Positions 7,460 to 61,454 of a DNA stretch of 64,000 nucleotides are shown piece after piece. Positions within the stretch are counted from its first letter, which is position 1; every line of letters starts with the position of its first letter. Origin of the DNA: Polyangia bacterium (lineage in GTDB: Bacteria > Myxococcota_A > Polyangia > JAHFDS01 > DATFWX01); the NCBI GenBank assembly GCA_035258845.1, contig DATFWX010000154.1, positions 2,659 to 66,658 of the forward strand, written 5' to 3'. The notes under the pieces are model-generated. The model did no database searches and was not told the DNA's origin. It was given only the letters and a program-made list of their open reading frames with translations. Both the position numbers and the translations under genes were made by a program.

Positions 7460-8620
7460 GTGTTCTCCGCCCGCGTGTCGCGCTGGAGCCTTTTGCCCAA
7501 CCGGCTGACCGATCGGCTGGCCCAGCTGCGCGCGTCCGGCGCCGCCATCTTCGATCTCACCGAGTCCAACCCGACCCGCGCCGGCTTCGCGTACCCCGAG
7601 GACGAAGTGCGCGCCGCCCTGTCCGGCCCGCACTCGCTGACCTATGAGCCGCATCCGCGTGGCTGCGCGGACGCGCGCGCGGCCGTGGCCGCCTATTACG
7701 GCGCGCGCGGGGTCGCGGTCGATCCCGACCGAGTGGTCTTGACCGCCAGCACCAGCGAAGCCTACGGCTTTCTGTTCAAGCTGCTGGCCGATCCGGGCCA
7801 GGCCATCCTGACCCCGCAGCCAAGCTACCCGCTGTTCGAGTTTCTGGCCGGGCTCGAGTCGCTCGAGGTTCGCACCTATCCGCTCGGTTACCAGGGCGGC
7901 TGGCACCTGGATCTGGATGCGCTCGCCGGCGCTGCCCGGGCCCCCGATGTACGCGCCATCCTGGTGGTAAGCCCGGGCAATCCGACCGGTTGCTTCCTCA
8001 AGGCGCCCGAGCTGGCGGCGCTGCGTGCCCTCGAGCGCCCGCTCATCGTCGACGAGGTGTTTGCCGATTACGCGGCCGGACCGGATCCGGCGCGCGTTGC
8101 CACCGTCGCCGGCGAAACCGGCGTGCTCGCGTTCGCGCTGTCCGGGCTGTCCAAGGTGTGCGGCCTGCCGCAGCTGAAGCTGGGCTGGATCGTGGTTTCT
8201 GGTCCCGACCGGGCGCGCGCGGCCGCGCTCGAGCGGCTCGACCTCATTGCCGACACCTACTTGTCGGTGGGAACACCGGTGCAGGCGGCGGCCCCGCGCC
8301 TGCTCGCGCTCGCGCCCGCCCTGCAGGAGCAGATCCGAATGCGCCTGGCGAAAAATCACGCGACCTGCCGGCACGCGCTCCAGGGCACGCCCGCCCAGCT
8401 GCTCGAGGCCGAGGGCGGCTGGTCCGCGATCGTGCGCCTGCCGCGTACGCGCACCGAGGAGGAATGGGCGCTCGCGCTGCTCGAGCAGGACCACGTGCTC
8501 GCGCACCCGGGCTATTTCTTCGACTTCCCCGAGGAGGCCTTCCTTGTGGTCAGCCTGTTGACGCCGGAAGCGACCCTTGCGGCCGGGCTCGACCTTCTGG
8601 CGCGCCGCGTCGCCGAGTGA
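7460..8620 (+). CDS. pyridoxal-phosphate-dependent aminotransferase, class I/II
   Basis: 386 aa. ...ALSGLSKVCGLPQLKLGW... is the PLP-lysine block. Overall fold-type I aminotransferase pattern. Confidence 0.8.
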   Translation: MFSARVSRWSLLPNRLTDRLAQLRASGAAIFDLTESNPTRAGFAYPEDEVRAALSGPHSLTYEPHPRGCADARAAVAAYYGARGVAVDPDRVVLTASTSEAYGFLFKLLADPGQAILTPQPSYPLFEFLAGLESLEVRTYPLGYQGGWHLDLDALAGAARAPDVRAILVVSPGNPTGCFLKAPELAALRALERPLIVDEVFADYAAGPDPARVATVAGETGVLAFALSGLSKVCGLPQLKLGWIVVSGPDRARAAALERLDLIADTYLSVGTPVQAAAPRLLALAPALQEQIRMRLAKNHATCRHALQGTPAQLLEAEGGWSAIVRLPRTRTEEEWALALLEQDHVLAHPGYFFDFPEEAFLVVSLLTPEATLAAGLDLLARRVAE

Positions 8621-33127: not shown

Positions 33128-33160
33128 GGTGCCGCCGCTTTCGTCCACGCTCCTCCCTCC

Positions 33161-33442
33161 CTACTCCTCCCCAAACTTGTCGCGCACCAGCTCCCCGAGC
33201 GCGTCCAGCGCCGCCGGGGCGTCAGGCCCCATCGTACGCACCTTGATGAAGGTTCCCTTGGCTGCCACCAGCATCAAAACGCCCATGATGCTCTTGCCGT
33301 TGACAGTCTGACCGTCCTTCTCCACCTGCACGTCACTGCGATACCTGTTGGCCGTCTGCACGAACTTGGTGGCCGCCCGCGCATGCATGCCGAGCTGGTT
33401 CACGATCTCGAACGTCGCCTCGGCCACCTCGCTCACACTCAC
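33161..33442 (-). CDS. ptsH: phosphocarrier protein HPr
   Basis: NQLGMHARAA (His15-like) and NGKSIMGV (Ser46-like). The GTG start forms a GTGA overlap with the EIIA stop. Confidence 0.85.
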   Translation of the reverse strand: MSVSEVAEATFEIVNQLGMHARAATKFVQTANRYRSDVQVEKDGQTVNGKSIMGVLMLVAAKGTFIKVRTMGPDAPAALDALGELVRDKFGEE

Positions 33443-33879
33443 TCGATCTCCTCGATGTGAAGCCGTCCCGTGATCTCGCTGCCCAACCGGATCGAGCGCC
33501 GCCCGGTCTGCAGCAGCAGCTCGGCCAGGTCGCGCGGCCCATCCTTGCGCTCGCAGGTGGCCAGCTTGAGCAGCATGGCCATGTTGAGCCCGCACAACAC
33601 CTCCACGTTGTGCGCTCCATCCATCAGCGCCATGCAAAGATTGGATGGGGTGGCGCCGTGGAGATCGACCAAAAACAGCACCCCCAGCCCGCTGTCCACC
33701 TCGTACGAGGCGGTCTCGAGCCTGGCGTTGGTGATCTCGGGCGGATCGGTCGTGCTCACGGTGACCACACGCAGCTCGGGCAGATCGCCGACGATTGCCT
33801 GCGTGTCCCGGACCATCTCGGCGCCGTGGAGGCCGTGCGTCACCACCACGACGCCTGTCATCGCACTGTTCCGGCTCAC
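33439..33879 (-). CDS. PTS EIIA component, mannose/fructose family
   Basis: ...VVVVTHGLHGAEM... is the active-site His region. GTGA overlap with the rapZ stop. An alternative ATG lies at 33861. Confidence 0.8.
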   Translation of the reverse strand: MSRNSAMTGVVVVTHGLHGAEMVRDTQAIVGDLPELRVVTVSTTDPPEITNARLETASYEVDSGLGVLFLVDLHGATPSNLCMALMDGAHNVEVLCGLNMAMLLKLATCERKDGPRDLAELLLQTGRRSIRLGSEITGRLHIEEIE

Positions 33880-34718
33880 GTCCTCTCCAGATCGCGGTGA
33901 CGAATCGTCACGCTGTATTGGGGATCGATCCGGCGCGCCAGCTCCTCGACCACCGCCACCGAGCGGTGGCGCCCGCCCGTACAGCCGATCGCGACGGTCA
34001 GGTACGCCTTGCCCTCGCGCTCGTAGCGCGGAATCGCATAGCGGAGCAGGCCCCCCACATGCTCTAGAAATTCGCGTGCGTCTTGGTTTCCCATGACGAA
34101 TTGGGCCACCTCGACATCGCGCCCGGTCGAGCCCGACAGCGCCTCGACGAAGTATGGGTTGGGCAGGAAGCGCACGTCCAGCACGATGTCCGCCTCCACG
34201 GGCAGCCCGTGCTTGAAGCCGAACGACACCAGCGTGACCGCGAGCGCTCCGGTGTGGCGCCCGTAGCGCTCCTGGATGATGCCCTTGAGCTGATGCACGG
34301 TCAGCTCACCGGTCTGCACCACCGCCTCCGAGTGCTCGCGCAGCACCTGCAGCGCTTCCCGCTCCTTGCGGATCCCGCCGCGCAGATCGTCGCCGCCCAG
34401 CGGGTGGCGACGCCGGGTTTCCTGGTAGCGCCGCACCAGCACCTCGTCAGGCGCATCCAGGAACAGGACCTCGAGCGAGTGGCCGGCCGTGCGCAGCGCC
34501 TGCAGGGCCGCCGTCGCACCGCCCAGGAACTCCTTCTCGCGGGCGTCCACCACCAGCGCCGCCTTCTCGACCTCGTGGCTGGCCGATAGTAGCTCCATGA
34601 AGCGGCCCAGAAGCGGCAGCGGCAGGTTGTCCACGCAGTAGTAGTCGAGATCCTCGAGCGCGCGCAGCGCGGTCGACTTGCCGGCCCCGCTCATGCCGGT
34701 GACGATGATGATCCGCAT
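33876..34718 (-). CDS. rapZ: RNase adapter protein RapZ (YvcJ/YhbJ family)
   Basis: MRIIIVTGMSGAGKSTALRALEDLDYYCVDNLP... and ...IGCTGGRHRSV... Confidence 0.9.
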   Translation of the reverse strand: MRIIIVTGMSGAGKSTALRALEDLDYYCVDNLPLPLLGRFMELLSASHEVEKAALVVDAREKEFLGGATAALQALRTAGHSLEVLFLDAPDEVLVRRYQETRRRHPLGGDDLRGGIRKEREALQVLREHSEAVVQTGELTVHQLKGIIQERYGRHTGALAVTLVSFGFKHGLPVEADIVLDVRFLPNPYFVEALSGSTGRDVEVAQFVMGNQDAREFLEHVGGLLRYAIPRYEREGKAYLTVAIGCTGGRHRSVAVVEELARRIDPQYSVTIRHRDLERT

Positions 34719-34721
34719 CGC

Positions 34722-35687
34722 CTACTCGACCTCGTCGCCGTGAAAGGCCAGGGGGCGGGCCTCCGCGATGGCCTTGTTCAGCCGATCCTGGAACTCGCGC
34801 GCCGAGTGGTGGCCCTGCAGCTTGAGCAGCATGTTGCGCGCCGCCACCTCGATGATCGAGGTCATGTTGCGGCCCGGGCGGATCGGCACCCGCAGCATCG
34901 GGATCTCGACGTCGAGGATCTGATAGGTCAGCTCCTCCACGCCCAGCCGGTCGTACTCCTCGTTCTCGTCCCACTCGACCAGCTCCACCACCAGCTCGAG
35001 CTTCTTGGTGTCGCGCACCGCCGCGATTCCGAACAGATCCTTGATGTTGATGATGCCCAGGCCCCGGATCTCCATGTGGTGCCGGATGATCTCGTGGCCC
35101 GAGCCGAACACGGTGTCGGGCGGCCGCTTGCGGATGTCGACGATGTCGTCGGCCACCAGGCGGTGGCCGCGCATGACCAGGTCGAGCGCGGCCTCGCTCT
35201 TGCCGATGCCCGACTTGCCGAGCAGAAGGATGCCGACGCCCAGCACATCCAGCAGCACGCCGTGCAGCGAGGTCTGGGGCGCCAGCTGATCCTCGAGATA
35301 CTTGGTGATGCGATTGATGAACACCGAGCTCATCAGGGGCGAGCGCATGACCGGCACCGAGTGCTGATTGGACTCGTCGATCAGGAGCTGCGGCACCTCG
35401 AGCCCGCGCGTGACCACGATGCAGGCCGGCTCCAGAGAGACCAGACCCACGATCCCCCGACGCCGTGCGTCGTCGTCGAGGGTGGCCAGATAGGACACCT
35501 CGGTCAAGCCCAGCACCTGTACGCGCTCGCGGTGCACGTGCTCGGTGTAGCCGGTCAGCGCCAGCCCCGGCTTCTGGATTCGGGGCGCGGTCACCCGGCG
35601 TCCCAGCCCCGATCCGCCGGCAATCAGCTCCAAAGCCAGCCCGTTCTCGGCGTCGTTGAGCAGCGCTTCTACGCGCAGCGACGGCAT
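34722..35687 (-). CDS. hprK: HPr(Ser) kinase/phosphorylase
   Basis: P-loop LLGKSGIGKSEAALDL, plus ...LVADD... and ...IRGLGIINI... Confidence 0.9.
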   Translation of the reverse strand: MPSLRVEALLNDAENGLALELIAGGSGLGRRVTAPRIQKPGLALTGYTEHVHRERVQVLGLTEVSYLATLDDDARRRGIVGLVSLEPACIVVTRGLEVPQLLIDESNQHSVPVMRSPLMSSVFINRITKYLEDQLAPQTSLHGVLLDVLGVGILLLGKSGIGKSEAALDLVMRGHRLVADDIVDIRKRPPDTVFGSGHEIIRHHMEIRGLGIINIKDLFGIAAVRDTKKLELVVELVEWDENEEYDRLGVEELTYQILDVEIPMLRVPIRPGRNMTSIIEVAARNMLLKLQGHHSAREFQDRLNKAIAEARPLAFHGDEVE

Positions 35688-35688
35688 T

Positions 35689-35814
35689 GAAGGCGGGCTC
35701 CAGGCTTCAGGCTACGGGCTACAGGAGAACCACGCTTGCGTGCGTCGGGCACGAAGCGGGCGCTGGCCGGGCTGGGGCCGGCAGCCTGAAGCCTGTAGCC
35801 TGTGGCCTGCCTTC
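35689..35814 (-). repeat. long imperfect hairpin whose arms are tandem 7-nt units (element D)
   Basis: Left arm GAAGGCGGGCT CCAGGCT TCAGGCT ACGGGCT ACAGG. Right arm CAGCCTG AAGCCTG TAGCCTG TGGCCTG CCTTC. It fills the ptsN-hprK spacer to within 3 nt of the ptsN stop and 1 nt of the hprK ATG. Confidence 0.8.
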
Positions 35815-35817
35815 TCA

Positions 35818-36279
35818 TTAGTACTTCGCGTCCTCCTCGGCGATCACGCGGTACAGGTCGGCCGCGGATGGCGCCTCCATCAGCCGCTCGCGGAACTCGC
35901 CGCTCTTGAACAGCCGACTGATGCGCGCCAGCGCCTTGAGGTGCGCGCCGGTCGAGTTCTCGGGTGCGATGAGCACGAAGAAGATATGGGTCGGGCGACC
36001 GTCCATGGACTGGAAGTCGACGCCCTCGCGCGACCGGCCCACGCACGCAACCAGCTGACCGGCGCCTTCGAGCTTGCCGTGTGGGATCGCCACCCCTTCT
36101 CCGATCGCGGTCGAGGCCAGCTTCTCGCGCTCCAGAAGCACGCGCACGAGGTCGTCCTTGCGGAACGGCTGCACGCGCTCGGCGAGCTGCGCCGCCAGCT
36201 CATGGATCACGCCCGGCTTGTCGCGGGCGTGCAGGTCGGGAACAATCAAGTCCTCTCGGACAAACTCTGTGATCTTCAC
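35818..36279 (-). CDS. ptsN: PTS IIA-like nitrogen-regulatory protein PtsN (EIIA-Ntr)
   Basis: ...STAIGEGVAIPHGKL... is the active-site His region. 153 aa. Confidence 0.85.
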   Translation of the reverse strand: MKITEFVREDLIVPDLHARDKPGVIHELAAQLAERVQPFRKDDLVRVLLEREKLASTAIGEGVAIPHGKLEGAGQLVACVGRSREGVDFQSMDGRPTHIFFVLIAPENSTGAHLKALARISRLFKSGEFRERLMEAPSAADLYRVIAEEDAKY

Positions 36280-36319
36280 TGAAAACCCCAGATCAACCTA
36301 AAATTTAATCGTCCCCGGG

Positions 36320-36973
36320 TCAACTGGCCTTGTGCTCCGCCTCCACGCCCTCCTGGGTCTCGATCAGCCCGTAGTTGCCGTCCTTGCGCCGATACACCAC
36401 GTTGACCTGCCGCGACGACGCGTTCATGAACACCAGGAACTCGTTTTCGAGCAGGTTCATCTGCATGACTGCCTCCTCGACGGTCATCGGCTTGGCAAAG
36501 AACTTGGACGATTTGATGATCTGCGACTTGGGCTGGTCGGGCGGCGGGCCCGGCTGTGCCTCCGGGCGCCCGGCCCGGCCGCGCGCGACCGCACGCATCT
36601 GCGCCGGCAACCCGTCCGGCTCCATGCTTTCGGCCGACAGCACGCTGGCCCGGATGGGGACGCCCAGTCCCGTGTGCGGCTTGTGATCGCGGATGCGGTC
36701 CTTGTAGCGCCGCACCTGGCGCTCGATCTTCGCCATCACGAGATCGATCGAAGAGTACATGTCCTCGGTCGCCTCGCGGCCCTTGAGCACGATGCCGTTG
36801 TGGAGCGTGATCACCACGTCGACCAGGTGCTGGTAGCCGCGTTCGGCCTGCAGAACTACATGCGCGGTGATGGGGTCGGGAAAGTACTTTCTGATCTTTT
36901 CCAGCTTTTCTCTTGCGTAGTCGCGAATTGCATCGGTGGCTTCCATGTGGCGGAACGTCACGGAAAGGTTCAT
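36320..36973 (-). CDS. hpf: ribosome hibernation-promoting factor, long form
   Basis: MNLSVTFRHMEATDAIRDYAREKLEKI... is the S30AE domain. C-terminal dimerisation domain ...KPMTVEEAVMQMNLLENEFLVF... Confidence 0.9.
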   Translation of the reverse strand: MNLSVTFRHMEATDAIRDYAREKLEKIRKYFPDPITAHVVLQAERGYQHLVDVVITLHNGIVLKGREATEDMYSSIDLVMAKIERQVRRYKDRIRDHKPHTGLGVPIRASVLSAESMEPDGLPAQMRAVARGRAGRPEAQPGPPPDQPKSQIIKSSKFFAKPMTVEEAVMQMNLLENEFLVFMNASSRQVNVVYRRKDGNYGLIETQEGVEAEHKAS

Positions 36974-37012
36974 GACCGGCGCCTCCTCTCGCGCCTGATT
37001 CCACCTACCGAA

Positions 37013-38515
<1,503 letters not shown>

Positions 38516-38681
38516 CTCGTCCCCGACCACCTCTCTGGCGATTCTCTAAATCGTTTCAAATATTTACGATCAGAGACAGGATGAATCTATCATCCTCGAA
38601 AGGCTTTGTCCACACTAAAACGCACGCGTGGTATGGAAGTTGCTAAGAGCTGGCACACCGCTTTTCACACGCCCGCACTTG

Positions 38682-40457
<1,776 letters not shown>

Positions 40458-44368: not shown

Positions 44369-44404
44369 CCGTCCCGCAAAACCTCCCTTATCATTCTATG
44401 CGCC

Positions 44405-46885
44405 TTGAGTTTCGCCGGGACCTATATCCGCTTCTTGTGCCGACGCCCCGGGCTGATCTTTGCGGCCGCGGTGGCCCTGCTCGTGCCCTCGTTGTGGCTG
44501 GCCGCAAAGCTCGAGCTCAAGACCGACTTCAAGGATCTTCTGCCCAAGCGGCGGCGCTCGGTGACCGAGCTCGAGCGCATCTCCAAGCACGTCGGCGGCA
44601 ACTCCTCGCTCGTGATCGCCGTCGAGGGCGACGACCTGGCGGCCATGGAGCGCTACGCCGATGACCTGGCGGCGCGGCTGCGCGCGCTGCCACCGGGCCT
44701 GATCGATCATGTCGACGAGTCGGTGCGGGCCGAGCGCGCCTTCTTCGAGCGCAACCGGTGGCTGTACGCAAGCGTCCAGGATCTGGAAAAAGTGCGCGAT
44801 GCGATCGAGAAGCGGGTCATCGCCGAGACGCCCTTCGACCTGGGCCTCGAAGAAGACGACCAGGCGCACGCGTCCGGGACCCGCGCCGCCAGCGACGATC
44901 TGAAAGCGCTCAAGCGCAAGCTCGAGGCCAAGGCGGCCCAGCTCGACAAGTTCCCGGGCGGCTACTACGCGGGCGAAAATGGGCACCTCTTGGCCCTGTT
45001 CGCCTACGCGGCCGGCAACGTGGGCACCGATTTCGACGCCGCCCAGCGGCTCCTCGATCGGGTGCGGGCGGAAGCGGAGGCGCAGGGGCCGCGCAGCTAC
45101 CATCCGTCGCTGCGCGTGACCCTGACCGGAGACCTCTTGACCGGAATCGAGGAATACAAAGCGGTCAAGGGCGACATCTTTCTGGCCAGCTCGATCTGCA
45201 TCTCGCTGGTGCTGCTTGTAATCGTGCTGTTTTACGGGCGGCTGCGCTCGCTGACCATCCTGGGCGTGACGCTGACGGTGGGCGTGGGAGTAACGTTTGG
45301 CTTCGCCCGCCTGACCATCGGCTATCTCAACACCTCGACCGCCTTTCTGGGCAGCATCGTGGCCGGCAACGGCATCAACTTCGCCATCGTCATGCTCGCG
45401 CGCTACTTCGAGGAGCGGCGGCGCGGGCGCGCGATCGAGGATGCAGTCGATCTGGCGGTGCGGCGTACCGCGCCCGCCACCGGCGGCGCAGCCCTGGCGG
45501 CCGGCATCGCGTATGGGTCACTGATGCTGACCGATTTTCGGGGCTTCAACCAGTTCGGGGTCATCGGCGGCTTCGGGATGCTGATCTGCTGGATCGCAGC
45601 CTATACGGTCGGCCCGGCCATGATCGTTCTGTGCGAGCGCATCCCGCTGCTCGCCGGTCGCAGCGAGCGGCCCTGGCGCAACCTGTTCTCGCAGCCGTTC
45701 GCGGCCGCGGTGCGGCGCGCCCCGCGCGCGCTGCTGCTTGCGGCTGGCCTTTTGTCGGCGCTCGGGGTCGTTCTGACCGTTCGCTTTCTGGCGCGCGACC
45801 CGTTCGAGTACGACTTTGGCAAGCTGCGCAACAATCAGGTGCGGCGCACCAGCTACGCGTTCGAGGTGTCCAAACGCGTGTCGCGCATCCGCGGCGAGGG
45901 CGGCGACGGCCTGGTGCTCTTGGCCGAGCGGCCCGACCAGGTGCCCCTCATCAAGGGCGAGCTGGAACGGCGTCGGCGTGCGGCCGGGGCGGCTTCGCCC
46001 ATCGGCAGCGTGACCGCGGTCGAGGAGCTCCTGCCCGAGCGCCAGGGCGAGAAGCTTGCGCTTCTGGCCCATATCCGCAGCATCATCGACAAGTCCAGGG
46101 ACGCGCTCGACGACGAGGATCGCAAGCTGGCGCTCGACGAGCGGCCGCCCGAGACGCTGCGCGCGCTCACCGTGGCCGACCTGCCGCGCAAGCTCACCGA
46201 GCCCTTTACCGAGAAGGACGGGCGCAAAGGCCGCATCGTGTTCATTCAGCCCGCCAAGTGGCTCAACTCCTGGGGCGGCCACGACCTGATCCAGCTCGCG
46301 CGCGCGGTCGAGGAGCTGCGTCTGGACGACGGCGAGACCGTGTACACGTCGGGCCAGGCGGTGGTGTTCGCGGACATGCTGCGCAGCGTGCTCGCCGACG
46401 GCCCGCGCGCGGTCGCATGCTCACTCTTGGGGGTTCTCATGCTGATCCTCGCCCTGATGCGACGCGTGCGCGCGAGCCTGCTCACGCTGGCGACCCTGTT
46501 GTGCGGCACCAGCGTGATGCTGGGCCTGGCCTCGGTCCTGGGCTGGAGGCTGAACTTCCTCAACTTCGTCGCCATCCCGATCACGCTCGGGGTGGGCGCC
46601 GACTATGCCATCAACATGGTGCGCCGGCACCTGGATGAGCCCGACCTTCCGCCCGATCAGGTGGTCGCCACCACCGGCGGCGCCGTCACCCTGTGCAGCA
46701 TGACCACGATCATCGGCTACAGCTCGCTCCTCATCGCCGACAACAGCGCGCTAGTCTCGTTTGGGATGCTGGCCGCGCTCGGCGAGGTCACCTGTCTGAC
46801 CACGGCGGTGGCGTTTCTGCCGGCGCTGGTCCGCCTGCTCCGGCCGCGCCGGGCCCCCGCCTCGGCGGCCGACGCCGCGGCATAA
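44405..46885 (+). CDS. MMPL/RND-superfamily transporter
   Basis: 826 codons. Two 6-TM bundles, each preceded by a large loop (...LTILGVTLTVGVGVTFG..., ...LATLLCGTSVMLGLAS...). TTG start. Paralogue of 51851..54331. Confidence 0.8.
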   Translation: MSFAGTYIRFLCRRPGLIFAAAVALLVPSLWLAAKLELKTDFKDLLPKRRRSVTELERISKHVGGNSSLVIAVEGDDLAAMERYADDLAARLRALPPGLIDHVDESVRAERAFFERNRWLYASVQDLEKVRDAIEKRVIAETPFDLGLEEDDQAHASGTRAASDDLKALKRKLEAKAAQLDKFPGGYYAGENGHLLALFAYAAGNVGTDFDAAQRLLDRVRAEAEAQGPRSYHPSLRVTLTGDLLTGIEEYKAVKGDIFLASSICISLVLLVIVLFYGRLRSLTILGVTLTVGVGVTFGFARLTIGYLNTSTAFLGSIVAGNGINFAIVMLARYFEERRRGRAIEDAVDLAVRRTAPATGGAALAAGIAYGSLMLTDFRGFNQFGVIGGFGMLICWIAAYTVGPAMIVLCERIPLLAGRSERPWRNLFSQPFAAAVRRAPRALLLAAGLLSALGVVLTVRFLARDPFEYDFGKLRNNQVRRTSYAFEVSKRVSRIRGEGGDGLVLLAERPDQVPLIKGELERRRRAAGAASPIGSVTAVEELLPERQGEKLALLAHIRSIIDKSRDALDDEDRKLALDERPPETLRALTVADLPRKLTEPFTEKDGRKGRIVFIQPAKWLNSWGGHDLIQLARAVEELRLDDGETVYTSGQAVVFADMLRSVLADGPRAVACSLLGVLMLILALMRRVRASLLTLATLLCGTSVMLGLASVLGWRLNFLNFVAIPITLGVGADYAINMVRRHLDEPDLPPDQVVATTGGAVTLCSMTTIIGYSSLLIADNSALVSFGMLAALGEVTCLTTAVAFLPALVRLLRPRRAPASAADAAA

Positions 46886-47745: not shown

Positions 47746-49176
47746 ATGGCGCCCCTGCGCAGGCGGCGGCCGGATCGCGCGCTCGCGCTGGCGCTGTTCG
47801 CCGTCAGCGCGGCCACCTCCGTGCTGCTCGACGCGGGCCTGGTCTGCAGCAACGATGGCGCGCACTACGCGCTCGTGCGCGCGCTGGCCGAAGATCACAG
47901 CGCCCGCATCGATGGCCAGCTCGGCTATGCGCAGGGCATCGACTACTCGGAGCACGACGGCCACGCCTACTCGGACCGGCCGCCCGGCACCGCCCTGGCC
48001 GCCCTGCCCTTCTACCTGGTCGCGCGTGCGCTGGGCGCGAGCGACGCCGGCCGGCAGTTTGCCTGCGCTCTTCTGGCGGCGCTGGCGGGCGCCCTGGCGA
48101 CCGTGCTGACCTACCTCATCGCAAGGCGGCTCGGCCTGTCGCTGGCGGGCGCGACCGCAGCCGCGCTCGCGCTGGCGCTGTGCACGCCCGTGCGCACCTA
48201 CTCGAGCGCGCTCTGGAACCACGCGCCCGCGGCCGCCCTGACCGCGCTCACAGTCTGGTTGGCACTGGGGCTCGAAGAGAAGCGGTCGAGCGCGCGACTG
48301 CTTGCGCTGGGCGGTGCGGCCGGATACGTGGTCGGCGTCGACTACTCGACCGCGCTCTCGTCGGTGCTCCTGGTCGCGCTGGTGGGATGGCGGTGGCGGC
48401 GCGACCTGGGCGCGCTGGCGCCGCTTGTGCTCGGCTGCGCGCTCGGGCTCGCGCCCGCTCTCGCCTACCACACGATCGCGTTCGGCGGGCCGTTTGCGAC
48501 CCCCTACCAATTCCACAACCTGCGCTACCACGGGGGCGTGTTTGCCAATACGCGCAGCCTGCGCGCCATGTACGGCGGCTCCTTTGTCGAGGGGTTTTTC
48601 GGGCTTTTGGGCAGCTGGCGGGCGGGGCTGCTCCTGTACAGCCCGATCCTTTTCAGCGGCTTTCTGGTGCTGCCGCGCTTCTTGCGCTTGCTGGGACGGC
48701 GGAGGGCGCTGATGGTGGTCGCGCCATGGGTGCTGACCCTGCTGGTCGCCGCCAAGCACGTCACCTGGCACGGCGGCGCGCCGCACGATGCGCGCTACCT
48801 CAGCGCCGTGATGCCTCTTTTCTGCCTGCCGGTCGGGCTGGCGCTCGATCGCGTGCACGACCACCTGGGCTGGCTGGCCGGCTTTGGCGCGCTGTTCTTC
48901 CTGTCGGCGACCATCCAGGTGGTCAAGCACGCCGCCGGCTGGATGCGCGATGTCCAGCCCTGGATCGTCGCTTTTGGCCAGACCCTGCCCGGCGACCCCG
49001 GGCCCACCGCACGCGCTTTTCTGGCCTGGCTGTTTCCGCATCCGATTGCAGCCGGCTGTGTGCTCGGCCTGGGCCTTTCCGCCGCGGCCGTGCTGGCGCG
49101 CTATGGCGCTTCCGAGCTCGAGGCGGCCGGCGGCAGAAGCGGGGCCACCGCAATCGGCTCGCCGACCACGCGGTAG
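47746..49176 (+). CDS. polytopic membrane protein, GT-C-like
   Basis: The ATG immediately follows the GT2 stop. ...CSNDGAHYALVRALAE... then ...YSDRPPGTALAALPFY... About 11 TM segments. Confidence 0.65.
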   Translation: MAPLRRRRPDRALALALFAVSAATSVLLDAGLVCSNDGAHYALVRALAEDHSARIDGQLGYAQGIDYSEHDGHAYSDRPPGTALAALPFYLVARALGASDAGRQFACALLAALAGALATVLTYLIARRLGLSLAGATAAALALALCTPVRTYSSALWNHAPAAALTALTVWLALGLEEKRSSARLLALGGAAGYVVGVDYSTALSSVLLVALVGWRWRRDLGALAPLVLGCALGLAPALAYHTIAFGGPFATPYQFHNLRYHGGVFANTRSLRAMYGGSFVEGFFGLLGSWRAGLLLYSPILFSGFLVLPRFLRLLGRRRALMVVAPWVLTLLVAAKHVTWHGGAPHDARYLSAVMPLFCLPVGLALDRVHDHLGWLAGFGALFFLSATIQVVKHAAGWMRDVQPWIVAFGQTLPGDPGPTARAFLAWLFPHPIAAGCVLGLGLSAAAVLARYGASELEAAGGRSGATAIGSPTTR

Positions 49177-50906
49177 ACGCGCGCGCCCCCGTGCGCGAAG
49201 GCGAGCTCGAGCCGGGGGTCGCGATCGGCGGTCTCGCGCCGCCACGGCCGCGCCCGCTTGGGATAGGTCCATTTCGCGCCCACATAGACCCAATCCGCGC
49301 GCTGGTCCTTGCGCGCCTCCAGATACTCGCTGAAGTAGAAGGGGTTGCCGTGCACGCGCGTGACCTGGCGGCGCGCCAGCGCCGGGATCCAAAGCCCGGC
49401 GTCGCCGTAGTTGTTGGCAATCATCGCATGGGGCGGCACCTTCACGGCCACCCAGGCCAGCGCGGCGCGGTCGTCGGCGGTCACCACCACATCTTCAGCC
49501 GCGCCCATCTGGTACTCGTGGAAATGCATGAAGAGCCCGAAGCCGGCCAGAAGACCTCCGCCCACAAGCACGAGCGCGCGCTGGGGCTCGATCGCCTCGA
49601 ACAGCCAGGCCACGCCCAGGCCCATGGGCAGGTGGAGCACGGTGAGAAGGCGCGTCGGATAGAGCAGCTCCGACTCCGGCAGCCAGAAACCGTAGCTGCC
49701 CAGAAAGCAAAGGATCGTGCCCGCCACGGCGAGCGCGGCCGCAGCAGCCAGCTGACGTCGCCCGCCCGGGCGGAAGCCCAGGATGAGCCCACCCAGGGCC
49801 AGCGCCGGCACGAGCGGCCCCACCGAGCTGAACAAGAGCGGCGAGCCGAGCACGCGGCTGTGCTCGGCCGTGATGAGCTCGCGCACCCACTGCCTTTCGA
49901 ACGGCGACACATCGGCCCGCCCTCCCAGCAGATAGGGCAACAGGAGCACCAGGGCGCCCGCCCCTGCCACCATGGTGGCACCGATCGCCCGGGCCTCCCG
50001 GCGATGCCACCATGCCACCATGAAAGCGGCCGGGCCGAGGGCGTACAGGCCGGTCGCGACTGGGATCAGGTGCGCCGAGGCCGCACCGGCAGCCGCCAGC
50101 GCGCACAGTGGCGCCGTGCGCCCGGGCGCCTGTGGCCGCGGCACCAGCGCCACCGCGCCGAAGAGCAGCCCGAAACCGAGCACGGTCGGCGCGCCGCCCC
50201 ACGCGAGAGCGGTCTGGGGCAGCGAGCAGCCATAGAGGCACACCGCCGCCGCCACCGCCGCCGGCCAGGGCCGCACGTCCAGGCGCGTGAGAGCGGCGAA
50301 CAGCGCGCCCAGCGCAATCGCCTGTACCGCGCAGGCTGCGAAGAGCGCGCTGCGCACGCAATCGCCGCCCGTGCGCAGCCCGATCGCGACCAGCATGTGA
50401 AACCCGAGCGGATACGAGCCAAAGTTGTCGATGGGCAGATAGGGCCTCTGCGAGGCCGGCCAGCCGTTGGCGTCCGCAAGCAGGCGCGCCATCGCGGTGT
50501 GCATGCTCATATCGGCACCAGCGGGCGCCCGCATCACCAGGAGCGGGGACAGCCGCAAGAGCGCCCCCACGAAAAGAAGCGCCGCCGCCCGCCGGTCGAC
50601 CGCGGCCGCGGCCGGCGCAGGCGGCACCAGCGCATAGGCGACCAGGCTGGCCGCCGCCACGCCGAGCGCGAGCCCGTGCAGCGGCAGGTGGAGCCAGCGC
50701 AGCCATTGCACGGCCACCGACCAGAAGGCGACGCTTGCGACCGGCGCCAGGGCCACCGCAACCAACCGATCCATCCCACGCGCGCGCACGAGCAGCAGGC
50801 CCGGGACCACGAACGGCAAGAGAGGCGGATAGAGCGCGAGCGCGACCACGACCAGAAGCGGCGCTCCCAGGCGCCCGATCAGCTTGTTCCTTCGCGGCTC
50901 GTTCAT
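49101..50906 (-). CDS. polytopic membrane protein with a C-terminal soluble domain (GT-C-like, unknown function)
   Basis: 601 aa. About 12 TM segments, then ~170 aa of soluble sequence. Its 3' end overlaps the convergent gene by 76 nt. Confidence 0.6.
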   Translation of the reverse strand: MNEPRRNKLIGRLGAPLLVVVALALYPPLLPFVVPGLLLVRARGMDRLVAVALAPVASVAFWSVAVQWLRWLHLPLHGLALGVAAASLVAYALVPPAPAAAAVDRRAAALLFVGALLRLSPLLVMRAPAGADMSMHTAMARLLADANGWPASQRPYLPIDNFGSYPLGFHMLVAIGLRTGGDCVRSALFAACAVQAIALGALFAALTRLDVRPWPAAVAAAVCLYGCSLPQTALAWGGAPTVLGFGLLFGAVALVPRPQAPGRTAPLCALAAAGAASAHLIPVATGLYALGPAAFMVAWWHRREARAIGATMVAGAGALVLLLPYLLGGRADVSPFERQWVRELITAEHSRVLGSPLLFSSVGPLVPALALGGLILGFRPGGRRQLAAAAALAVAGTILCFLGSYGFWLPESELLYPTRLLTVLHLPMGLGVAWLFEAIEPQRALVLVGGGLLAGFGLFMHFHEYQMGAAEDVVVTADDRAALAWVAVKVPPHAMIANNYGDAGLWIPALARRQVTRVHGNPFYFSEYLEARKDQRADWVYVGAKWTYPKRARPWRRETADRDPRLELAFAHGGARVYRVVGEPIAVAPLLPPAASSSEAP

Positions 50907-51363
50907 CCTGTTCCTTCGCGGCTGTACTTAGCACGCTCTCCGCCGCGACCGCCCTGTCGAATTTTCACCACCTCGATCGGAATCAGTGCGGTGAATCCTT
51001 GACACTCTGCCGTTCAGTTGCTGTAGTTGCGCCCAGTTATCGTGCGCATGGGCTTTGCATAGCGGTTTCCTCTAAATCTGCGCCCTGGAGACTATCGAAA
51101 GTGAGACTTGCGATGGCGACTGCTTCCCTCTGGATTCGACGCTGGCTGATCTGGGGCCCCTGGACCGTGATGGCGTCCGCGTTCGTATGCGCCTGCCTGT
51201 TTCTTTACGGCGTGACCCGGCGCCCGGCACGCGCGCTGCAGGTTTCAGTGCGCCGGGCCAACGCGGCCGCGAGCACGATCAGCCCCCCTGCTGCTTCTCG
51301 CCCCGCGATGGTGAAAGTGGCCGATTAGTCCCGGTCCAATCTCGCGCTGGAGTAAGCCGATTG

Positions 51364-51850: not shown

Positions 51851-54331
51851 TCACGGCCTCTGCCGAGCACCCGTCGCCAGTCGCAGGAGCGCTGGCAGAA
51901 GCAGCATCGCGGCCGCCAGGCAGGTAAATTCACCCAGCATGGCCAGCTTACCCATCGAGGCCAGCGCCATGTTCTTGGCCATGACCAGCGCGAAGTAGCC
52001 GATGATCGTGGTCAGCGAACACAGGAACACGGCACCACCGGTGCGCTCGAGCGTGCGCGCGAGGCCCTGCGCACTTTTTGGCTCGCCGCGCGCCCGCTGC
52101 CAGATATTGGCCGCGTAATCGACCGCGATGCCGAACGTGGTCGGCAGCGCGACGAAGTTCATGAAGTTGATCTTGATCTGCGCGCCCGCCGCCGCGCCCA
52201 TCATCCAGACCACGCCCACGACCAGCGCCACTCCCACCACGGCCGCGCCGCGCACGCTGCCCAGCCCCAGCAAGACCACCAGCAGCACGCCCGCCGCCGC
52301 GATCACAGTGGTCAGCGGTCCGTCGCGCGCGATGGTGCGCAGAATGTCCGCGAACACCACCACCATGCCGCTGGTCGTGATGGTCTCGCCGTCGACGGTC
52401 ACGCTGCGCACGGCATCGGTGAATTCGAACAGGTTGCGCGCCACCCACAGGTCGCGCCCGCCCGGCGGCTCGATGTGCACGACCGTTCCCAGCGCACCGT
52501 CTGAGCTCTGGTAAAACCGCCGCACCGGCTCGGGCAGGTCCGCGATCTCGAAGGGCCGCGCGTAAAGGCGCGCGCGCAGCTTTCCGACCAGCTCGCGTGC
52601 GTGCGCGGGGATCTCGTCCTCGGGCACCTGATCGACCAGCCGCCTGAGCCGGCTCGCGATCGCCAGTTTCTGTCCCACCTGCACCGGCATGCGCTCGTAG
52701 ATCGAGTGGCAGCGCCGGATGGGTGCGTGCGCCTCGCCCATCTGCTGGACCAGCCCGTTGAACACCTCGCAGATCCGGCGCGCCTGGTCGGCCGTGCGTG
52801 CCACCATGAAGACCGGCGTCATCGAGCGCCGATAGATGTGCGCCACCCGGTCGTCAAGCTCGGCGGTATAGGTGCCATCGAGCGCCTTGTTGCGCAGGTT
52901 GGCCAGGTTGGTCTCCAGGCAGTCGGGCAGGAACGCATGGACCTTCCAAACCGAGACCGCGCCCACGACCACCGACGCCACCACCACCGCCTCCGGCCAC
53001 CGAATGGGAATCGCGGCCAGCCAGCGCGGGTACTGCCACTCCCGAAACCGGCGCCGCTCGCCCACGCTTGGACGCACCCGCTCAAGCAGCAAGGTCAAGG
53101 CGGGCAGGAGCGTGAATGTGAGCAGCCAGCAGAAAAAGATGCCGGCGCCCCCGACCACCCCGAACTGATGGAACGCGGTGATGCGCCCAAAAAACAGCGC
53201 GCCGAACGAGATCGCGGTCGCCAGCGCGGCCACGAAGGTGGCGCGCCAGGTGGTCTGGAGCGCGGTCAGAACGGCGGCCTCGGCCTCCTGGCCCTCCTGC
53301 CGCTCCTCCAGGTAGCGCGACAGGAAGATGATGCCGTAGTTGATGCCGGTGCCCACGATGATCGAGCCCAGGAAAGCGGTCTCGAAGTTGATGCGCCCGA
53401 ACAGAACCCGCGCCAGCGCGAACGACAGCAGCGCACCCACAGCCAGGGTCAGGCCCAAAAGGCCCAGCACGCGCAGGCGCCGGAAATAGAGCAGCACTGC
53501 CAGCGCCACCAGGCCCACGCACAGGCCGGCCGTCGACGCGATGTCGCGCTTGACCGACTCGTACTCCTCGAGCCCGGTCTGCACCTCGCCGGTTAAGTCC
53601 ACGCGCAGGTCGGGCCGGTAGCGGTGCGGACTCAGCTCGTCGATGAGGGCCCGGATGCGCGCCGTGAAGGCCTTGGCGCCCAGCGCCATGCCTTGCGGCG
53701 ACGGCCGCACGAACACGGCCAGCAGGGTGCCGGTCTCGTTGGCGAAGTAGGAGTCGGGATAGGGATCGTAGTCGCGGCGTGCCCGATCGATGCGCTCCTG
53801 GATCTCGTCGAAGCGATCGCGGGCCGGCGGGCCCGCCGGCTGCGACGACACGGGCGACGGCGCGTCGCCATCGAGGTCGACGTAGAGCGGATTGGCCTTG
53901 AGCTTACGGTCGTCGATCTCGGCCTTGAGGTCGCGCTCGATCCGCTCGAGATCGGCCAGGTCGGCGTACAGGATCGCGTTGCGCTCGTAGAAATCGACCA
54001 GCGCGCGCACGGTGTAGTCGATGTAGCGGATGTCGGGGCTCATACGCGCACGCAGGCGCGCGACCAGATCCTCGGCGAAGCGCTCGTTGGTCCTCAGGTC
54101 GGGCGACTGGATGGCGATGGTCAGGTTGCCGCCGCCGACCTTTTGCGAAATGCGCCGCAGATCTTCGACCGATTTCGTGCCCGCGGGCAGAAGCTCGGCA
54201 ATGTCGTCCTGCAGCTCGAGCCCGGCCGCCAGGAGACCGGCGCCGACCGCCACCAGCGCACATGCAACCACAACGCGACCGGAATGAGCAGCCAGCCAGC
54301 GCGCATAGCGGGCGAGTCCCTCAGGCGCCAC
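51851..54331 (-). CDS. MMPL/RND-superfamily transporter (paralogue 2)
   Basis: 826 codons. The N-terminal region ...LELQDDIAELLPAGTKSVEDLRRISQKVGGGNLTIAIQS... aligns with ...LELKTDFKDLLPKRRRSVTELERISKHVGGNSSLVIAVEG... of 44405..46885. Confidence 0.8.
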   Translation of the reverse strand: MAPEGLARYARWLAAHSGRVVVACALVAVGAGLLAAGLELQDDIAELLPAGTKSVEDLRRISQKVGGGNLTIAIQSPDLRTNERFAEDLVARLRARMSPDIRYIDYTVRALVDFYERNAILYADLADLERIERDLKAEIDDRKLKANPLYVDLDGDAPSPVSSQPAGPPARDRFDEIQERIDRARRDYDPYPDSYFANETGTLLAVFVRPSPQGMALGAKAFTARIRALIDELSPHRYRPDLRVDLTGEVQTGLEEYESVKRDIASTAGLCVGLVALAVLLYFRRLRVLGLLGLTLAVGALLSFALARVLFGRINFETAFLGSIIVGTGINYGIIFLSRYLEERQEGQEAEAAVLTALQTTWRATFVAALATAISFGALFFGRITAFHQFGVVGGAGIFFCWLLTFTLLPALTLLLERVRPSVGERRRFREWQYPRWLAAIPIRWPEAVVVASVVVGAVSVWKVHAFLPDCLETNLANLRNKALDGTYTAELDDRVAHIYRRSMTPVFMVARTADQARRICEVFNGLVQQMGEAHAPIRRCHSIYERMPVQVGQKLAIASRLRRLVDQVPEDEIPAHARELVGKLRARLYARPFEIADLPEPVRRFYQSSDGALGTVVHIEPPGGRDLWVARNLFEFTDAVRSVTVDGETITTSGMVVVFADILRTIARDGPLTTVIAAAGVLLVVLLGLGSVRGAAVVGVALVVGVVWMMGAAAGAQIKINFMNFVALPTTFGIAVDYAANIWQRARGEPKSAQGLARTLERTGGAVFLCSLTTIIGYFALVMAKNMALASMGKLAMLGEFTCLAAAMLLLPALLRLATGARQRP

Positions 54332-54390
54332 GGGTACACAGTCTAGCAGCGCGGGCGCCGGGGCTCAGAATTTTCTGGCGCGCGCACGGG

Positions 54391-58834: not shown

Positions 58835-60553
58835 ATGCGGGTGGTCGATGTGGAGCTGGGCTCGGGCACGCTGACGGCGCGCGAGGTCGCGGCGGTCGGG
58901 CCCATCGACCTGGCCGTGCGCGACCCCGGGTGCCAGGATGCGCTGGTCTTCGGCTGTGGCCCCCTGTCGACGCTGGAAGTGCCGGGCTCGCATCGGCTGG
59001 TGGTGTCGGGCTGGTCGCCGCTGTGGGCCGGCCGTGGCATCTCGACCATCGGCAGCGCCGCCCTGTCGCTGCACGCGCTGGGCCTGCGTGCGCTGGTTCT
59101 GCACGGGCGCGCGGGGCCGGTGGGACGGCCGGCCGCGCTGGTGTTGGCGGGCCATCCCGTGCGCGCCCGGGTGGTCGAGATCGATGCCGAGGCGGCCTGG
59201 CACAAGCGGGGCGCCTACGGGCTCCTGGCGGCGGCCGCGCGGCTTCTGGATGAGCCTGCGCGCGTGCTGTGCGTGGGCCCGGGGGCGCGCGCGACCCGCT
59301 TCGGCGCCATCGGCTCGGCCAGCGCGGGCTCGGACGTGTTCGACACCTGGGCCGGGCGCGGCGGGTTCGGTACCCAGCTTCTGGGAGCACACGGCCTGTG
59401 CGCCCTGGTTTTGCCAGCGGGCGAGCGGACGCGCGTGGGCAACTTCGTGCCGCCCGACGCGCTCGAGGCCGCGACCGTCAAGTATCGCTATGACCCGCGG
59501 CTCAAGACCGGCGGCACCTTCGGCGGCAACATGGCCTCGCTGCGCGAAAAGCTTCTGTGCATGAACGATCGATCGATCTACTGGTCGCCCGCGCTGCGGG
59601 AAGCCGCCTACGAGCGGCTGGTGGCGGGGCATTATCTGGCCCAATTCCAGGGCGACATGAAGGGACGCCGCGGGCGCGACTGCGGCGAGACCTGCCCGGC
59701 CGACTGCAAGAAGATCGATCAGGGCGGGCACAAGAAGGACTTTCAGCCCTACCAGGCGCTGGGACCCAACCTGGGCGTGTTCGATCAGCGCGCGGCCGAG
59801 GCGGTCAACGACGCCTGCGATGAGTGGGGGCTGGATGCGGTCGAGCTGGGCGGCGTGGTGGCGCTGTTGATGGAGCAGTCGGGCTGCGCGCACTGGGATC
59901 CAGAAAACTTCGATCCGGTGACCGATTCCGAGCACAATGCCAAGCTGGCGTGCGAGATCGCGAGCCAGGTCGCGCGCGGCGGGCGCGGCGCCGCCGGGGT
60001 GCGTGCGCTGGCGCGGTCGCTCGCGGGCGCGGCTGGCGACGCCGCCGTCTACGTCGCGCACGGCGAGGCCGGCGGCATGGCGCCCAATCAGTACTGGGTG
60101 CCCGGGATCCTGGCGCCGGTCGCGGTCGGCGGCCGCTATTATGTCGACTACTCGTTCGAGTTTGCGGCCCCGCGCGAGCTGGGCCGGCGCTGCGCCGAGC
60201 GCATGGTGCGCGAGCTGGCGCTCGACAACCTGGGCCTGTGCCGCTTCCAGCGCGAGTGGGCCGAAGGGCGCATGGACGAGCTGGCGCGCGCCGCCCGGCT
60301 GGAGGTGGATCCGCTCGAGCACCATCGGGAGCTCGCGCGTGCGCTCGATGACGCGGCCGCCCCGCGCCCGTGGGAGACCGCGCGCACGCGCGACCTGGTC
60401 AAGAGTTACCTCGACGAGGTGGCGCGCGACGGCCGGCCCGACCCGGCGCTCTCGGCCTGGCGCGCCGGTTTCGCGGCCGATCGCGACGCGGCGGCGGGAG
60501 CCTACTGGGCCGAGCTGCGGGCCGGGATCCGAGAGCGATTGGAGAGCACATGA
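58835..60553 (+). CDS. aldehyde:ferredoxin oxidoreductase (AOR) family protein, divergent
   Basis: AFOR_N-like N-terminus (...FGCGPL...G..R..VSGWSPLW..). Cys cluster DCGETCPADC and the late ...ALDNLGLCRF... motif. 572 aa. Confidence 0.7.
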   Translation: MRVVDVELGSGTLTAREVAAVGPIDLAVRDPGCQDALVFGCGPLSTLEVPGSHRLVVSGWSPLWAGRGISTIGSAALSLHALGLRALVLHGRAGPVGRPAALVLAGHPVRARVVEIDAEAAWHKRGAYGLLAAAARLLDEPARVLCVGPGARATRFGAIGSASAGSDVFDTWAGRGGFGTQLLGAHGLCALVLPAGERTRVGNFVPPDALEAATVKYRYDPRLKTGGTFGGNMASLREKLLCMNDRSIYWSPALREAAYERLVAGHYLAQFQGDMKGRRGRDCGETCPADCKKIDQGGHKKDFQPYQALGPNLGVFDQRAAEAVNDACDEWGLDAVELGGVVALLMEQSGCAHWDPENFDPVTDSEHNAKLACEIASQVARGGRGAAGVRALARSLAGAAGDAAVYVAHGEAGGMAPNQYWVPGILAPVAVGGRYYVDYSFEFAAPRELGRRCAERMVRELALDNLGLCRFQREWAEGRMDELARAARLEVDPLEHHRELARALDDAAAPRPWETARTRDLVKSYLDEVARDGRPDPALSAWRAGFAADRDAAAGAYWAELRAGIRERLEST

Positions 60554-60683: not shown

Positions 60684-61454
60684 ATGAAGCCGCTGCGCTG
60701 GTGGGCGCCGGTCGGGAGCGCGGCGATTGCGCTGGGAGCGGGCCTTTTGCCCTATGCCGCCCTCAATTCCGCGGGCAAGATGCCGCTCTGGCTGCGCGAC
60801 CACCCCTGGCCGATGGAGCTTACGGCGGCGCTGGCCACCGTGGTCGCGGTGACGCTGGCGATACGCGCCTTTCGCCAGCACCGGGTGCGGGTGGTGGCCA
60901 CCCTATGCGCGCTCTTGGCGACCGGGGCCACGGCATTGTTTGCGTCCGTGGTTCACGTCGGGAGCTATCAGCTGCCGCCGCCGCCCCGGGAGCTCGCGGT
61001 GGGCACGGCCGCGCCCGATTTCACGCTGCCCGACCAGACCGGCCACCCGGTGGCGCTGGCCTCGCTGCGCGGACATCCCACGCTGCTCGTGTTCTACCGC
61101 GGCTTCTGGTGACCGTTTTGACACTCCGAGCTGGCCGGTCTGGCCAGCCACGCTCCCGAGTTCGATGCCGCCGGCGTTCGCATCCTGGCCATCAGCGTCG
61201 ACCCGCCCGACGAGTCGGCCAAGCTCAGGCAGGACCTGGGCCTACCGTTCCCTTTGCTCTCGGATGCCGACGAGCAGGTGATCAAGCGCTACCACCTGCT
61301 GCACGAGAAGGGCAATCGGGGCGCAGACATCGCACGCCCGGCCAATCTCCTGCTCGACCGGGAGGGCATCATCCGCTGGGCCATGTTCACGGACAACATC
61401 CGGGTGCGTCCGCATCCCGAGGTGCTGCTCCAGGCCGCTCGCGAGCTACGCTGA
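60684..61454 (+). CDS. membrane-anchored peroxiredoxin-like (PRX_like2 / AhpC-TSA) protein with two in-frame TGA codons at the CxxC positions; putative di-selenocysteine protein
   Basis: ATG at 60684 and three TM-like segments. ...LLVFYRGFW is followed by TGA (61110-61112), P, F, TGA (61119-61121), then HSELAGL...RILAISVDPPDES...LPFPLLSDADEQVIKRY...ANLLLDREGIIRW..., all in one frame, ending at the stop 61452-61454. The tail is the listed ORF 61254..61454, same frame. Confidence 0.7.
61130..61148 (+). promoter_or_regulatory. SECIS-like recoding hairpin
   Basis: GCUGGCC-GGUCU-GGCCAGC: a 7-bp perfect stem with a 5-nt loop starting GGU. The loop starts 24 nt after the first UGA and 15 nt after the second. 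Confidence 0.55.

Follow-up and report, generated by a model that had tools for sequence, protein, structure and literature searches.

The window analysed here is a stretch of 64,000 nucleotides (nt) of contig DATFWX010000154.1 from the Polyangia bacterium assembly GCA_035258845.1, and the gene under study is a forward-strand coding sequence (60684..61454, +; 256 codons plus stop in conceptual translation) predicted to encode a membrane-anchored selenoprotein with a peroxiredoxin (Prx) fold. Its translation reads MKPLRWW...LLVFYRGFW-stop-PF-stop-HSELAGL...ARELR-stop; the same frame runs through ...GHPTLLVFYRGFW-TGA-Pro-Phe-TGA-HSELAGLASHAPEF..., which makes the two in-frame TGAs codons 143 and 146. 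The true terminator is the TGA at 61452..61454 (+), and relatives stop at the equivalent alignment position. An earlier note on this DNA, made from its letters alone, had placed TGAs at 61110–61112 and 61119–61121 and the stop at 61452–61454, and translation confirmed all three. For the domain searches, Cys was substituted at codons 143 and 146 of the conceptual product. The redox domain of the Prx fold (AhpC/TSA; 60999..61379, +) was identified by PF00578 AhpC-TSA over residues 106–232 (E=1.2e-34; 119.4 bits against a cutoff of 26), and Pfam Redoxin also matched the 256-residue product (3e-19); both matches span the two TGAs. The recoded product was collinear over its full length with seven relatives of the selenocysteine (Sec) form and two of the Cys form. 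The proposal of the earlier note that both TGAs occupy the Cys positions of a CxxC motif in an AhpC/TSA fold was borne out by this alignment and by homologues with Cys at both sites.

Comparison of the relatives' loci and alignments revealed that the first in-frame TGA (codon 143; 61110..61112, +) is family-wide. Among the best 120 matches, approximately 67 protein clusters stop exactly at ...FYRG[FASVY]W, mostly at a length of 142 amino acids (aa), and full-length CPFC forms are few among the matches listed (P0001, P0002, and P0064). In each of the 45 other Sec-form loci, codon 143 is TGA and the frame stays open to the domain end, and none of the 45 carries a disruption elsewhere in the gene. 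The closest relatives (L081, L083, L085, L086, L165, L171, L173, and L175), which share 64–70% identity with the window protein in the N-terminal half, read TGA-CCx-TTC-TGC/TGT, that is, U-P-F-C. Codon 143 is Cys in P0001, P0002, and L182, and four further Cys/Cys loci carry Cys at both positions. Public gene calls cut members of the family into two pieces, a 142-aa “hypothetical” or “membrane” protein and a 66–92-aa AhpC-TSA fragment that begins at an internal codon (60684–61112 and 61254–61454 in the window). The same two-piece annotation was found in L081, L165, L171, L173, and L175, and at least 67 protein clusters are affected. Four full-length relatives (P0070, P0071, P0073, and P0075) read FYRGYW-W-P-x-C, which could reflect either a genuine TGG or a TGA translated under genetic code 4.

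A hairpin of the bacterial Sec insertion sequence (bSECIS) type lies within the coding sequence at 61130..61148 (+; 7 of 7 base pairs (bp), -13.4 kcal/mol). Its stem strand GCUGGCC (61130–61136) pairs with GGCCAGC (61142–61148) around the loop GGUCU (61137–61141). In the clade of the window, which we call the “RSELAGLA” clade, the stem begins 20 nt past the U of the first UGA (UGA-1) and the loop is GGUCU; the carriers compared were the window (61130–61148), L081, L083, L085, L165, L171, L173, and L175. The loop is 24 nt from UGA-1 and 15 nt from the second UGA (UGA-2), or 16 nt when the closing G-U is taken as part of the stem. The hairpin was formed in all nine clade members at -6.9 to -13.4 kcal/mol, with the most stable example in the window, and 96.8% of the stem cells across these nine members were paired. 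Apart from C-G to U-G wobbles, the stem varies only by a double compensatory change from C-G to G-C, which is found in the window itself. The loop GGU is the sole GGT among the 16 Gly codons of the gene, a codon with 9% usage in the window, and it is kept in nine of nine clade members. The published bSECIS model sets the UGA-to-loop spacing at 16–37 nt (PMC13188914), and the window hairpin fits this model with its 5-nt loop, G-G-U, 7 bp, folding energy below -7.5 kcal/mol, and UGA-1 at 24 nt. An Rfam gathering scan of the window returned no match, and no Rfam model caught the hairpin.

Our analysis also revealed a second hairpin type in the family. This type B hairpin has the loop AGUUG and 7 bp; its stem begins 12 nt past the U of the UGA, and the UGA-to-loop distance is 16 nt (n=24). 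It is carried by Acidobacteriota-type “NSELRSFQ” relatives (L087–L105, L107, and L109) together with L003, L114, and L119. The type B site is occupied by three unrelated stem sequences; all seven pairs were retained with changes on both sides, and none of 500 shuffles reached the score. As judged from these alignments, the SECIS has apparently shifted or been built anew as the family evolved. In the Cys/Cys homologues L182, L006, and L115–L117, the hairpin was not formed at either site (2–5 of 7 pairs, positive energies), and L182, the nearest Cys/Cys homologue, has GGC where the members of the window’s clade have GGU. Since the TGA at codon 143 is conserved throughout the family, the frame downstream is open, and the SECIS-type hairpin is found only with Sec forms, the first TGA is almost certainly a Sec codon.

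The second in-frame TGA (codon 146; 61119..61121, +) is lineage-specific, according to the relatives’ loci and to other assemblies of the same population. Codon 146 is TGC or TGT in 45 of the 45 other Sec-form loci, and the TGA/TGA pair is confined to the window population; the lineage-specific event was a single C-to-A change that turned TGC into TGA. The earlier note had argued that two chance nonsense mutations in a decaying gene were unlikely. This argument fails, because the first TGA is shared by all Sec-form relatives and is normal at all 45 loci, so that only one change is left to be explained. The sequence TGACCGTTTTGAC is identical in five further assemblies (L084, SRR5262249; L178, ERZ27264337; L179, SRR5215831; L180, ERZ27257190; L181, ERZ27257142), and thus six nucleotide assemblies agree. 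Because L178, L180, and L181 carry three, one, and one nearby single-nucleotide polymorphisms (SNPs), respectively, relative to the window, this TGA is present in several haplotypes. It is genuine, has reached fixation in this population, and is not an assembly artefact. The population itself is nearly clonal, with 0.1–0.2% divergence and 0–3 SNPs per 0.5–2.3 kb.

No further stop or frameshift was found in the 110 codons after codon 146. The statement in the earlier note that the downstream frame is intact and family-like was upheld, since the PF00578 match continues to residue 232 and the window keeps 31 of the 34 clade-invariant C-terminal columns, a number equal to that of L081. One of the three broken columns is R147H, which adjoins the new TGA: the window has CAC (His147; 61122..61124, +) where all nine other members of the clade alignment have Arg. 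The mean C-terminal identity to the clade was 0.70 for the window versus 0.67–0.76 for the other members, and the C-terminal half, when tested for relaxed selection, gave a signal neither for nor against it. This result excludes an old pseudogene, not a young one. The intact downstream codons had been put forward against a pseudogene in general; 110 intact codons alone do not exclude a recent knockout, and in this form the argument does not hold.

The N-terminus forms a membrane anchor of three helices (60702..60968, +; residues approximately 7–29, 42–63, and 66–95), as predicted from hydropathy and from the AlphaFold model of the 54%-identical Cys-form homologue P0001 (pLDDT 89.7), in which helices 7–29, 42–63, and 66–95 are followed by a thioredoxin-type domain. 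The loop between the second and third transmembrane helices (TM2–TM3), RAFRQHRVR (residues 61–69), is strongly positive and contains 3–5 K/R in eight of eight clade members. When the positive-inside rule is applied to this loop, the redox domain is predicted to be extracytoplasmic; the protein is probably oriented N-in and C-out, which would probably put this domain in the periplasm. The helices of the P0001 model and the positive loop thus support the location of the redox domain that the earlier note had proposed.

In the P0001 model, the CxxC lies at the N-terminus of helix 144–155; the Sec forms have the motif W-U-P-F-U/C at residues 143–146. All 50 of the top 50 Foldseek matches in PDB were peroxiredoxins (Bcp4, BcpB, PrxQ, and AhpE), with TM-scores of up to 0.89 when normalised to target length. 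The PDB sequence matches included BCP 2cx3 (2e-20), AhpE, and ResA (1e-12). Codon 146 aligns with the peroxidatic Cys of 2cx3, 2ywn, and AhpE, and codon 143 aligns with two residues: the Thr/Ser in the T/SxxC motif of Prx, and the nucleophilic Cys at the N-terminal end of the CxxC in ResA and thioredoxin (Trx). The segment R-G-F-W-U-P-F-C/U aligns with P-x-x-F-S/T-x-x-C of 2cx3, 2ywn, and AhpE, such that the Prx Pro is replaced by Arg and the Thr/Ser is also replaced. On this alignment, the motif is a CxxC of the Trx/ResA kind set within a Prx fold.

How, then, is UGA-2 read? We lean, by a narrow judgement, towards the view that Sec is inserted at both positions and that UGA-2 is served by the same SECIS as UGA-1. 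The distance from UGA-2 to the loop is close to that used for Sec by the type B relatives (15 versus 16 nt), and it is this likeness of spacing that led us to propose a shared SECIS. The spacing in E. coli fdhF is 18 nt; the reviews consulted gave no experimental spacing data for E. coli. The di-Sec reading is further favoured by the fixation of the second TGA in a natural population, by the lack of downstream decay, and by the coincidence that a chance knockout would require. There are 52 single-base routes to a stop in the gene, and the change of Cys146 from TGC to TGA is one of the 52; given also that 0 of the 45 other loci are disrupted, a random knockout on exactly codon 146 is improbable. 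The base after both UGAs is C, and UGA-C is a weak termination context. Shchedrina et al. reportedly described in 2007 a bacterial SelL in which a single coding-region SECIS was thought to serve both UGAs. One SECIS serving U-x-x-U has a precedent in Group 4 hydrogenases (PMC13582414), and evolution is documented to have replaced redox cysteines by Sec (PMC1794560). The di-Sec motif of the earlier note is thus solid in its first Sec, which rests on the family-wide TGA and the SECIS; its second Sec is only plausible, and on grounds other than those first given.

Several observations weigh against decoding of UGA-2 as Sec. The spacing of 15 nt is 1 nt under both the consensus minimum and the 16 nt of type B, and the base of the stem begins only 8 nt past UGA-2, where the ribosome may melt part of the stem. 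The covariation of the clade hairpin is statistically weak, as its stem hardly varies (56 of 500 shuffles). The second TGA occurs in 0 of 45 relatives, which gives no comparative sign of maintaining selection, and since the population is near-clonal, a recently fixed knockout would look identical. The 1-in-52 argument is itself heuristic. Furthermore, ARAGORN found no tRNA-Sec, nor any other tRNA, in the 64-kb window, and Pfam detected no SelA, SelB, or SelD among its 20 largest open reading frames (ORFs). Known Sec users do occur in the phylum Myxococcota (PMC1794560).

Among the alternatives, one is a serious rival, although we consider it less likely than the di-Sec reading, namely that the locus is a young pseudogene: a U-x-x-C selenoprotein gene in which a single C-to-A nonsense change at Cys146 was fixed in a near-clonal population. 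Translation would then stop at 61119, the product would be a membrane stub of 145 residues that has no working redox domain, and the downstream codons would look intact only since little time has elapsed. Four points speak for a recent knockout: of 46 Sec-form lineages, only this one has the second TGA; even the closest relatives do not exceed 70% identity, so that the change cannot be dated; the diversity of the population is tiny; and the 15-nt spacing lies just beyond the 16–37 nt consensus. On the other hand, the chance that a random nonsense change would strike codon 146, approximately 1 in 52, becomes lower still when frameshifts are counted, and the absence of disruption in all 45 other Sec-form loci indicates that genes of this family seldom decay into pseudogenes. 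The downstream part has not diverged more than expected, and the hairpin is the most stable of the clade and carries a compensatory swap. In addition, UGA-2 lies at a Sec-insertion distance seen in relatives, so that some read-through would be expected anyway.

Recoding of the second UGA, or of both, as an amino acid other than Sec is rather improbable in our estimate. Here, Cys would be inserted by the SelB-dependent tRNA-ReC (selC*), or Trp by near-cognate read-through, and the mature protein would stay U-x-x-C or similar. SECIS-dependent decoding of UGA as Cys has been described (Vargas-Rodriguez 2018, as cited by PMC13582414), and tRNA-ReC-like genes occur in approximately 56% of genomes with UXXU hydrogenases versus approximately 2% of other Sec-type genomes (PMC13582414). 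The window, however, holds no tRNA gene and hence no direct support for this reading, and a tRNA that competed at UGA-2 would compete equally at UGA-1.

A sequencing or assembly error, with a true codon 146 of TGC or TGT, is very improbable. It draws on one dissenting record, P0127 (SRC, SRR5262249_60992082; window 60795–61130), a protein-level read assembly that ends in ...FWLPFCHSN (AFYRAFWLPFCHSN; LLAFYRAFWLPFCHSN) and thus has Leu in place of the first TGA and Cys in place of the second. P0127 matches the window over 96 identical residues and then differs at five of its last 16. Such a pattern fits the poor-quality end of a read, which probably survived only because both stops had been erased by errors. 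Against an error at codon 146 of the window stand the six assemblies that agree on TGACCGTTTTGAC, three of them with independent SNPs. If P0127 were a real minority haplotype, it would bear on the question of pseudogene versus Sec. A genome-wide reassignment of TGA (e.g., to Trp or Gly) is effectively refuted. In its favour one might cite the W-W-P-x-C of P0070, P0071, P0073, and P0075, which could stem from gene calls made with genetic code 4. TGA terminates 20 of the 47 coding-like ORFs of the window, the recoded gene and its upstream neighbour included, and in-frame TGA is limited to the Cys-equivalent redox position, with a covarying hairpin behind it.

If Sec is inserted at both codons, the following mechanism may be proposed. 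The UGA at codon 143 would be read as Sec when SelB with Sec-tRNA docks on the hairpin at 61130–61148 through its loop GGUCU. The single SECIS would recode both UGAs, codon 146 being 9 nt nearer the hairpin, and yield a U-P-F-U centre; the di-Sec product would contain the peptide GFW-U-PF-U-HSELAGLASHAPEFDAAGVR. Sec143 would make the nucleophilic attack on the substrate, a peroxide or a disulfide, and residue 146 would resolve the intermediate, as a selenenylsulfide in the relatives and as a diselenide in the window protein. The centre would be regenerated by an extracytoplasmic thiol reductant. How the second UGA is read, how the protein lies in the membrane, and by what chemistry and reductant it works are all inferred. 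Taken as a whole, the picture of an extracytoplasmic, membrane-anchored diselenide enzyme of the Prx fold, with one SECIS for two UGAs 9 nt apart and a very recent exchange of Cys for Sec at the peroxidatic position, may or may not be right; we regard the case as evenly balanced. On this view, with all relatives sampled still U-x-x-C, the exchange would have been captured shortly after its fixation in a wild soil population.

The earlier note had considered a UxxU Prx-like protein to be possibly rare or new. Such proteins are, however, already documented. A 2026 review lists a Prx-like thiol:disulfide oxidoreductase of PF00578 with UxxC and UxxU motifs and 1~2 Sec (PMC13188914, Table 1), and the GOS survey lists “Prx-like 1, pfam00578, UxxC” with 225 sequences and places UxxU sequences in “Prx-like 2” (PMC2398784). 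SelL, as cited in PMC2397514 (reference 53) and PMC2398784, is a Prx-like U-x-x-U protein with a diselenide, and sixteen UXXU Group 4 NiFeSe hydrogenases were described in 2026, for which one SECIS was suggested to serve both codons (PMC13582414).

The window family shares with the PF00578 Prx-like selenoproteins (called “Prx-like 1” in the GOS survey; reference sequence WP_010940744.1) the AhpC/TSA domain, a CxxC-type motif whose first residue is Sec, and a bSECIS within the coding sequence. It differs from them in its conserved three-helix anchor and in the signature FYRGxW-U-P-F-C-R/N-SEL, and the UxxU of the window is a single lineage inside a UxxC clade. None of the curated NCBIfam models reached its cutoff for the window protein. 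SelL resembles it in its Prx-like thioredoxin fold and U-x-x-U motif, and forms a diselenide according to the citing papers; however, SelL is soluble and from aquatic organisms, whereas the window protein is membrane-anchored and from soil. NF040769 SelL_rel_redox gave 55.3 bits against a cutoff of 120, and PF13911 gave 21.5 against 27, so that identity with SelL or a SelL-related protein was rejected. PrxU (TxxU) also has a Prx fold, and its Sec occupies the peroxidatic position, which corresponds to the second TGA of the window (PMC13188914, Table 1), but it keeps the Thr of PxxxTxxC and is without Sec at the first position, unlike the window protein; NF040737 scored 44 bits against a cutoff of 270, and this identity was likewise rejected.

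BCP/PrxQ and AhpE (2cx3, 3hjp, and 1xvw) are the best matches of the soluble domain in both sequence and structure, and their peroxidatic Cys is the second redox position. The window protein differs from them in its membrane anchor, its Sec, and a CxxC-like motif as in ResA and TlpA; a canonical BCP was rejected, since NCBIfam BCP gave 64 bits against a cutoff of 140 and the PxxxT/SxxC motif is absent. The UXXU Group 4 [NiFeSe] hydrogenases resemble the window locus in two UGAs 9 nt apart before one predicted SECIS and in a sporadic, lineage-specific change of Cys to Sec. In contrast, they are unrelated proteins with a metal-ligand motif, and their added Sec is far from the SECIS, whereas that of the window is on the near side. 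By the curated models, the window protein is none of SelL, PrxU, and canonical BCP, and we therefore place it among the known PF00578 Prx-like selenoproteins.

What is modestly new is the conserved three-helix anchor and the presence of two SECIS placements in one family. The UxxU motif, with its new UGA on the SECIS-near side, seems to have arisen from UxxC very recently, and this is modestly new as well. The locus opens no new biological category. If UGA-2 is decoded, it provides a natural test of the minimum UGA-to-SECIS distance for bacterial recoding, and it would show a selenenylsulfide turned into a diselenide in one mutational step, with an existing SECIS and the RNA element unchanged. 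Our study also reveals a large family of Prx-like membrane selenoproteins of soil bacteria (at least 67 clusters) that is systematically mis-annotated as two fragments. Its practical value lies in better selenoprotein annotation and in a compact 70-nt cassette for SECIS-spacing reporters.

No conserved gene neighbourhood was found among the relatives, and from the gene order the gene looks stand-alone. As the neighbourhoods are not conserved, they point to neither an operon partner nor a dedicated reductase. In L165, a 638-aa protein with three DsbA/Thioredoxin_4 domains (367–2283) is encoded two genes upstream of the orthologue (3001–3444) on the same strand. This protein could be a redox partner; neither the window nor any of the other relatives shows the arrangement. 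The window scan found no further genes with an in-frame TGA. One candidate, the TGA at 8618–8620, after which a coding-like ORF continues in frame, was rejected as a selenoprotein: it is the stop of an aminotransferase (...ARRVAE-stop), and a separate gene (MEARMRI...) follows.

The gene directly upstream (58835–60553, +) encodes an aldehyde:ferredoxin oxidoreductase (AFOR_N/AFOR_C) and follows a PfkB kinase and a 4HBT thioesterase. Aldehyde:ferredoxin oxidoreductase is usually a tungsten or molybdenum enzyme of anaerobes; the host of this gene seems to be a soil myxobacterium. The PyrG of the window had its best matches with a name in Haliangiales (79%) and in Polyangia/Myxococcales (73–76%), in line with an uncultured member of the Myxococcota. 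Two paralogous MMPL-family transporters of approximately 838 aa (44369–46885, +; 51854–54364, -) face each other, and between them lie a DUF6541 membrane protein (49104–50927) and ORFs without a Pfam match. Farther upstream is an rpoN-region cluster on the reverse strand (31310–38545, -) that includes sigma-54 (37016–38545), HPr kinase (34725–35711), and PTS enzyme I (31310–33160), and that is adjoined by CTP synthase (38685–40457). Because this conserved cluster is present, the window is part of the core chromosome and not of a mobile element.

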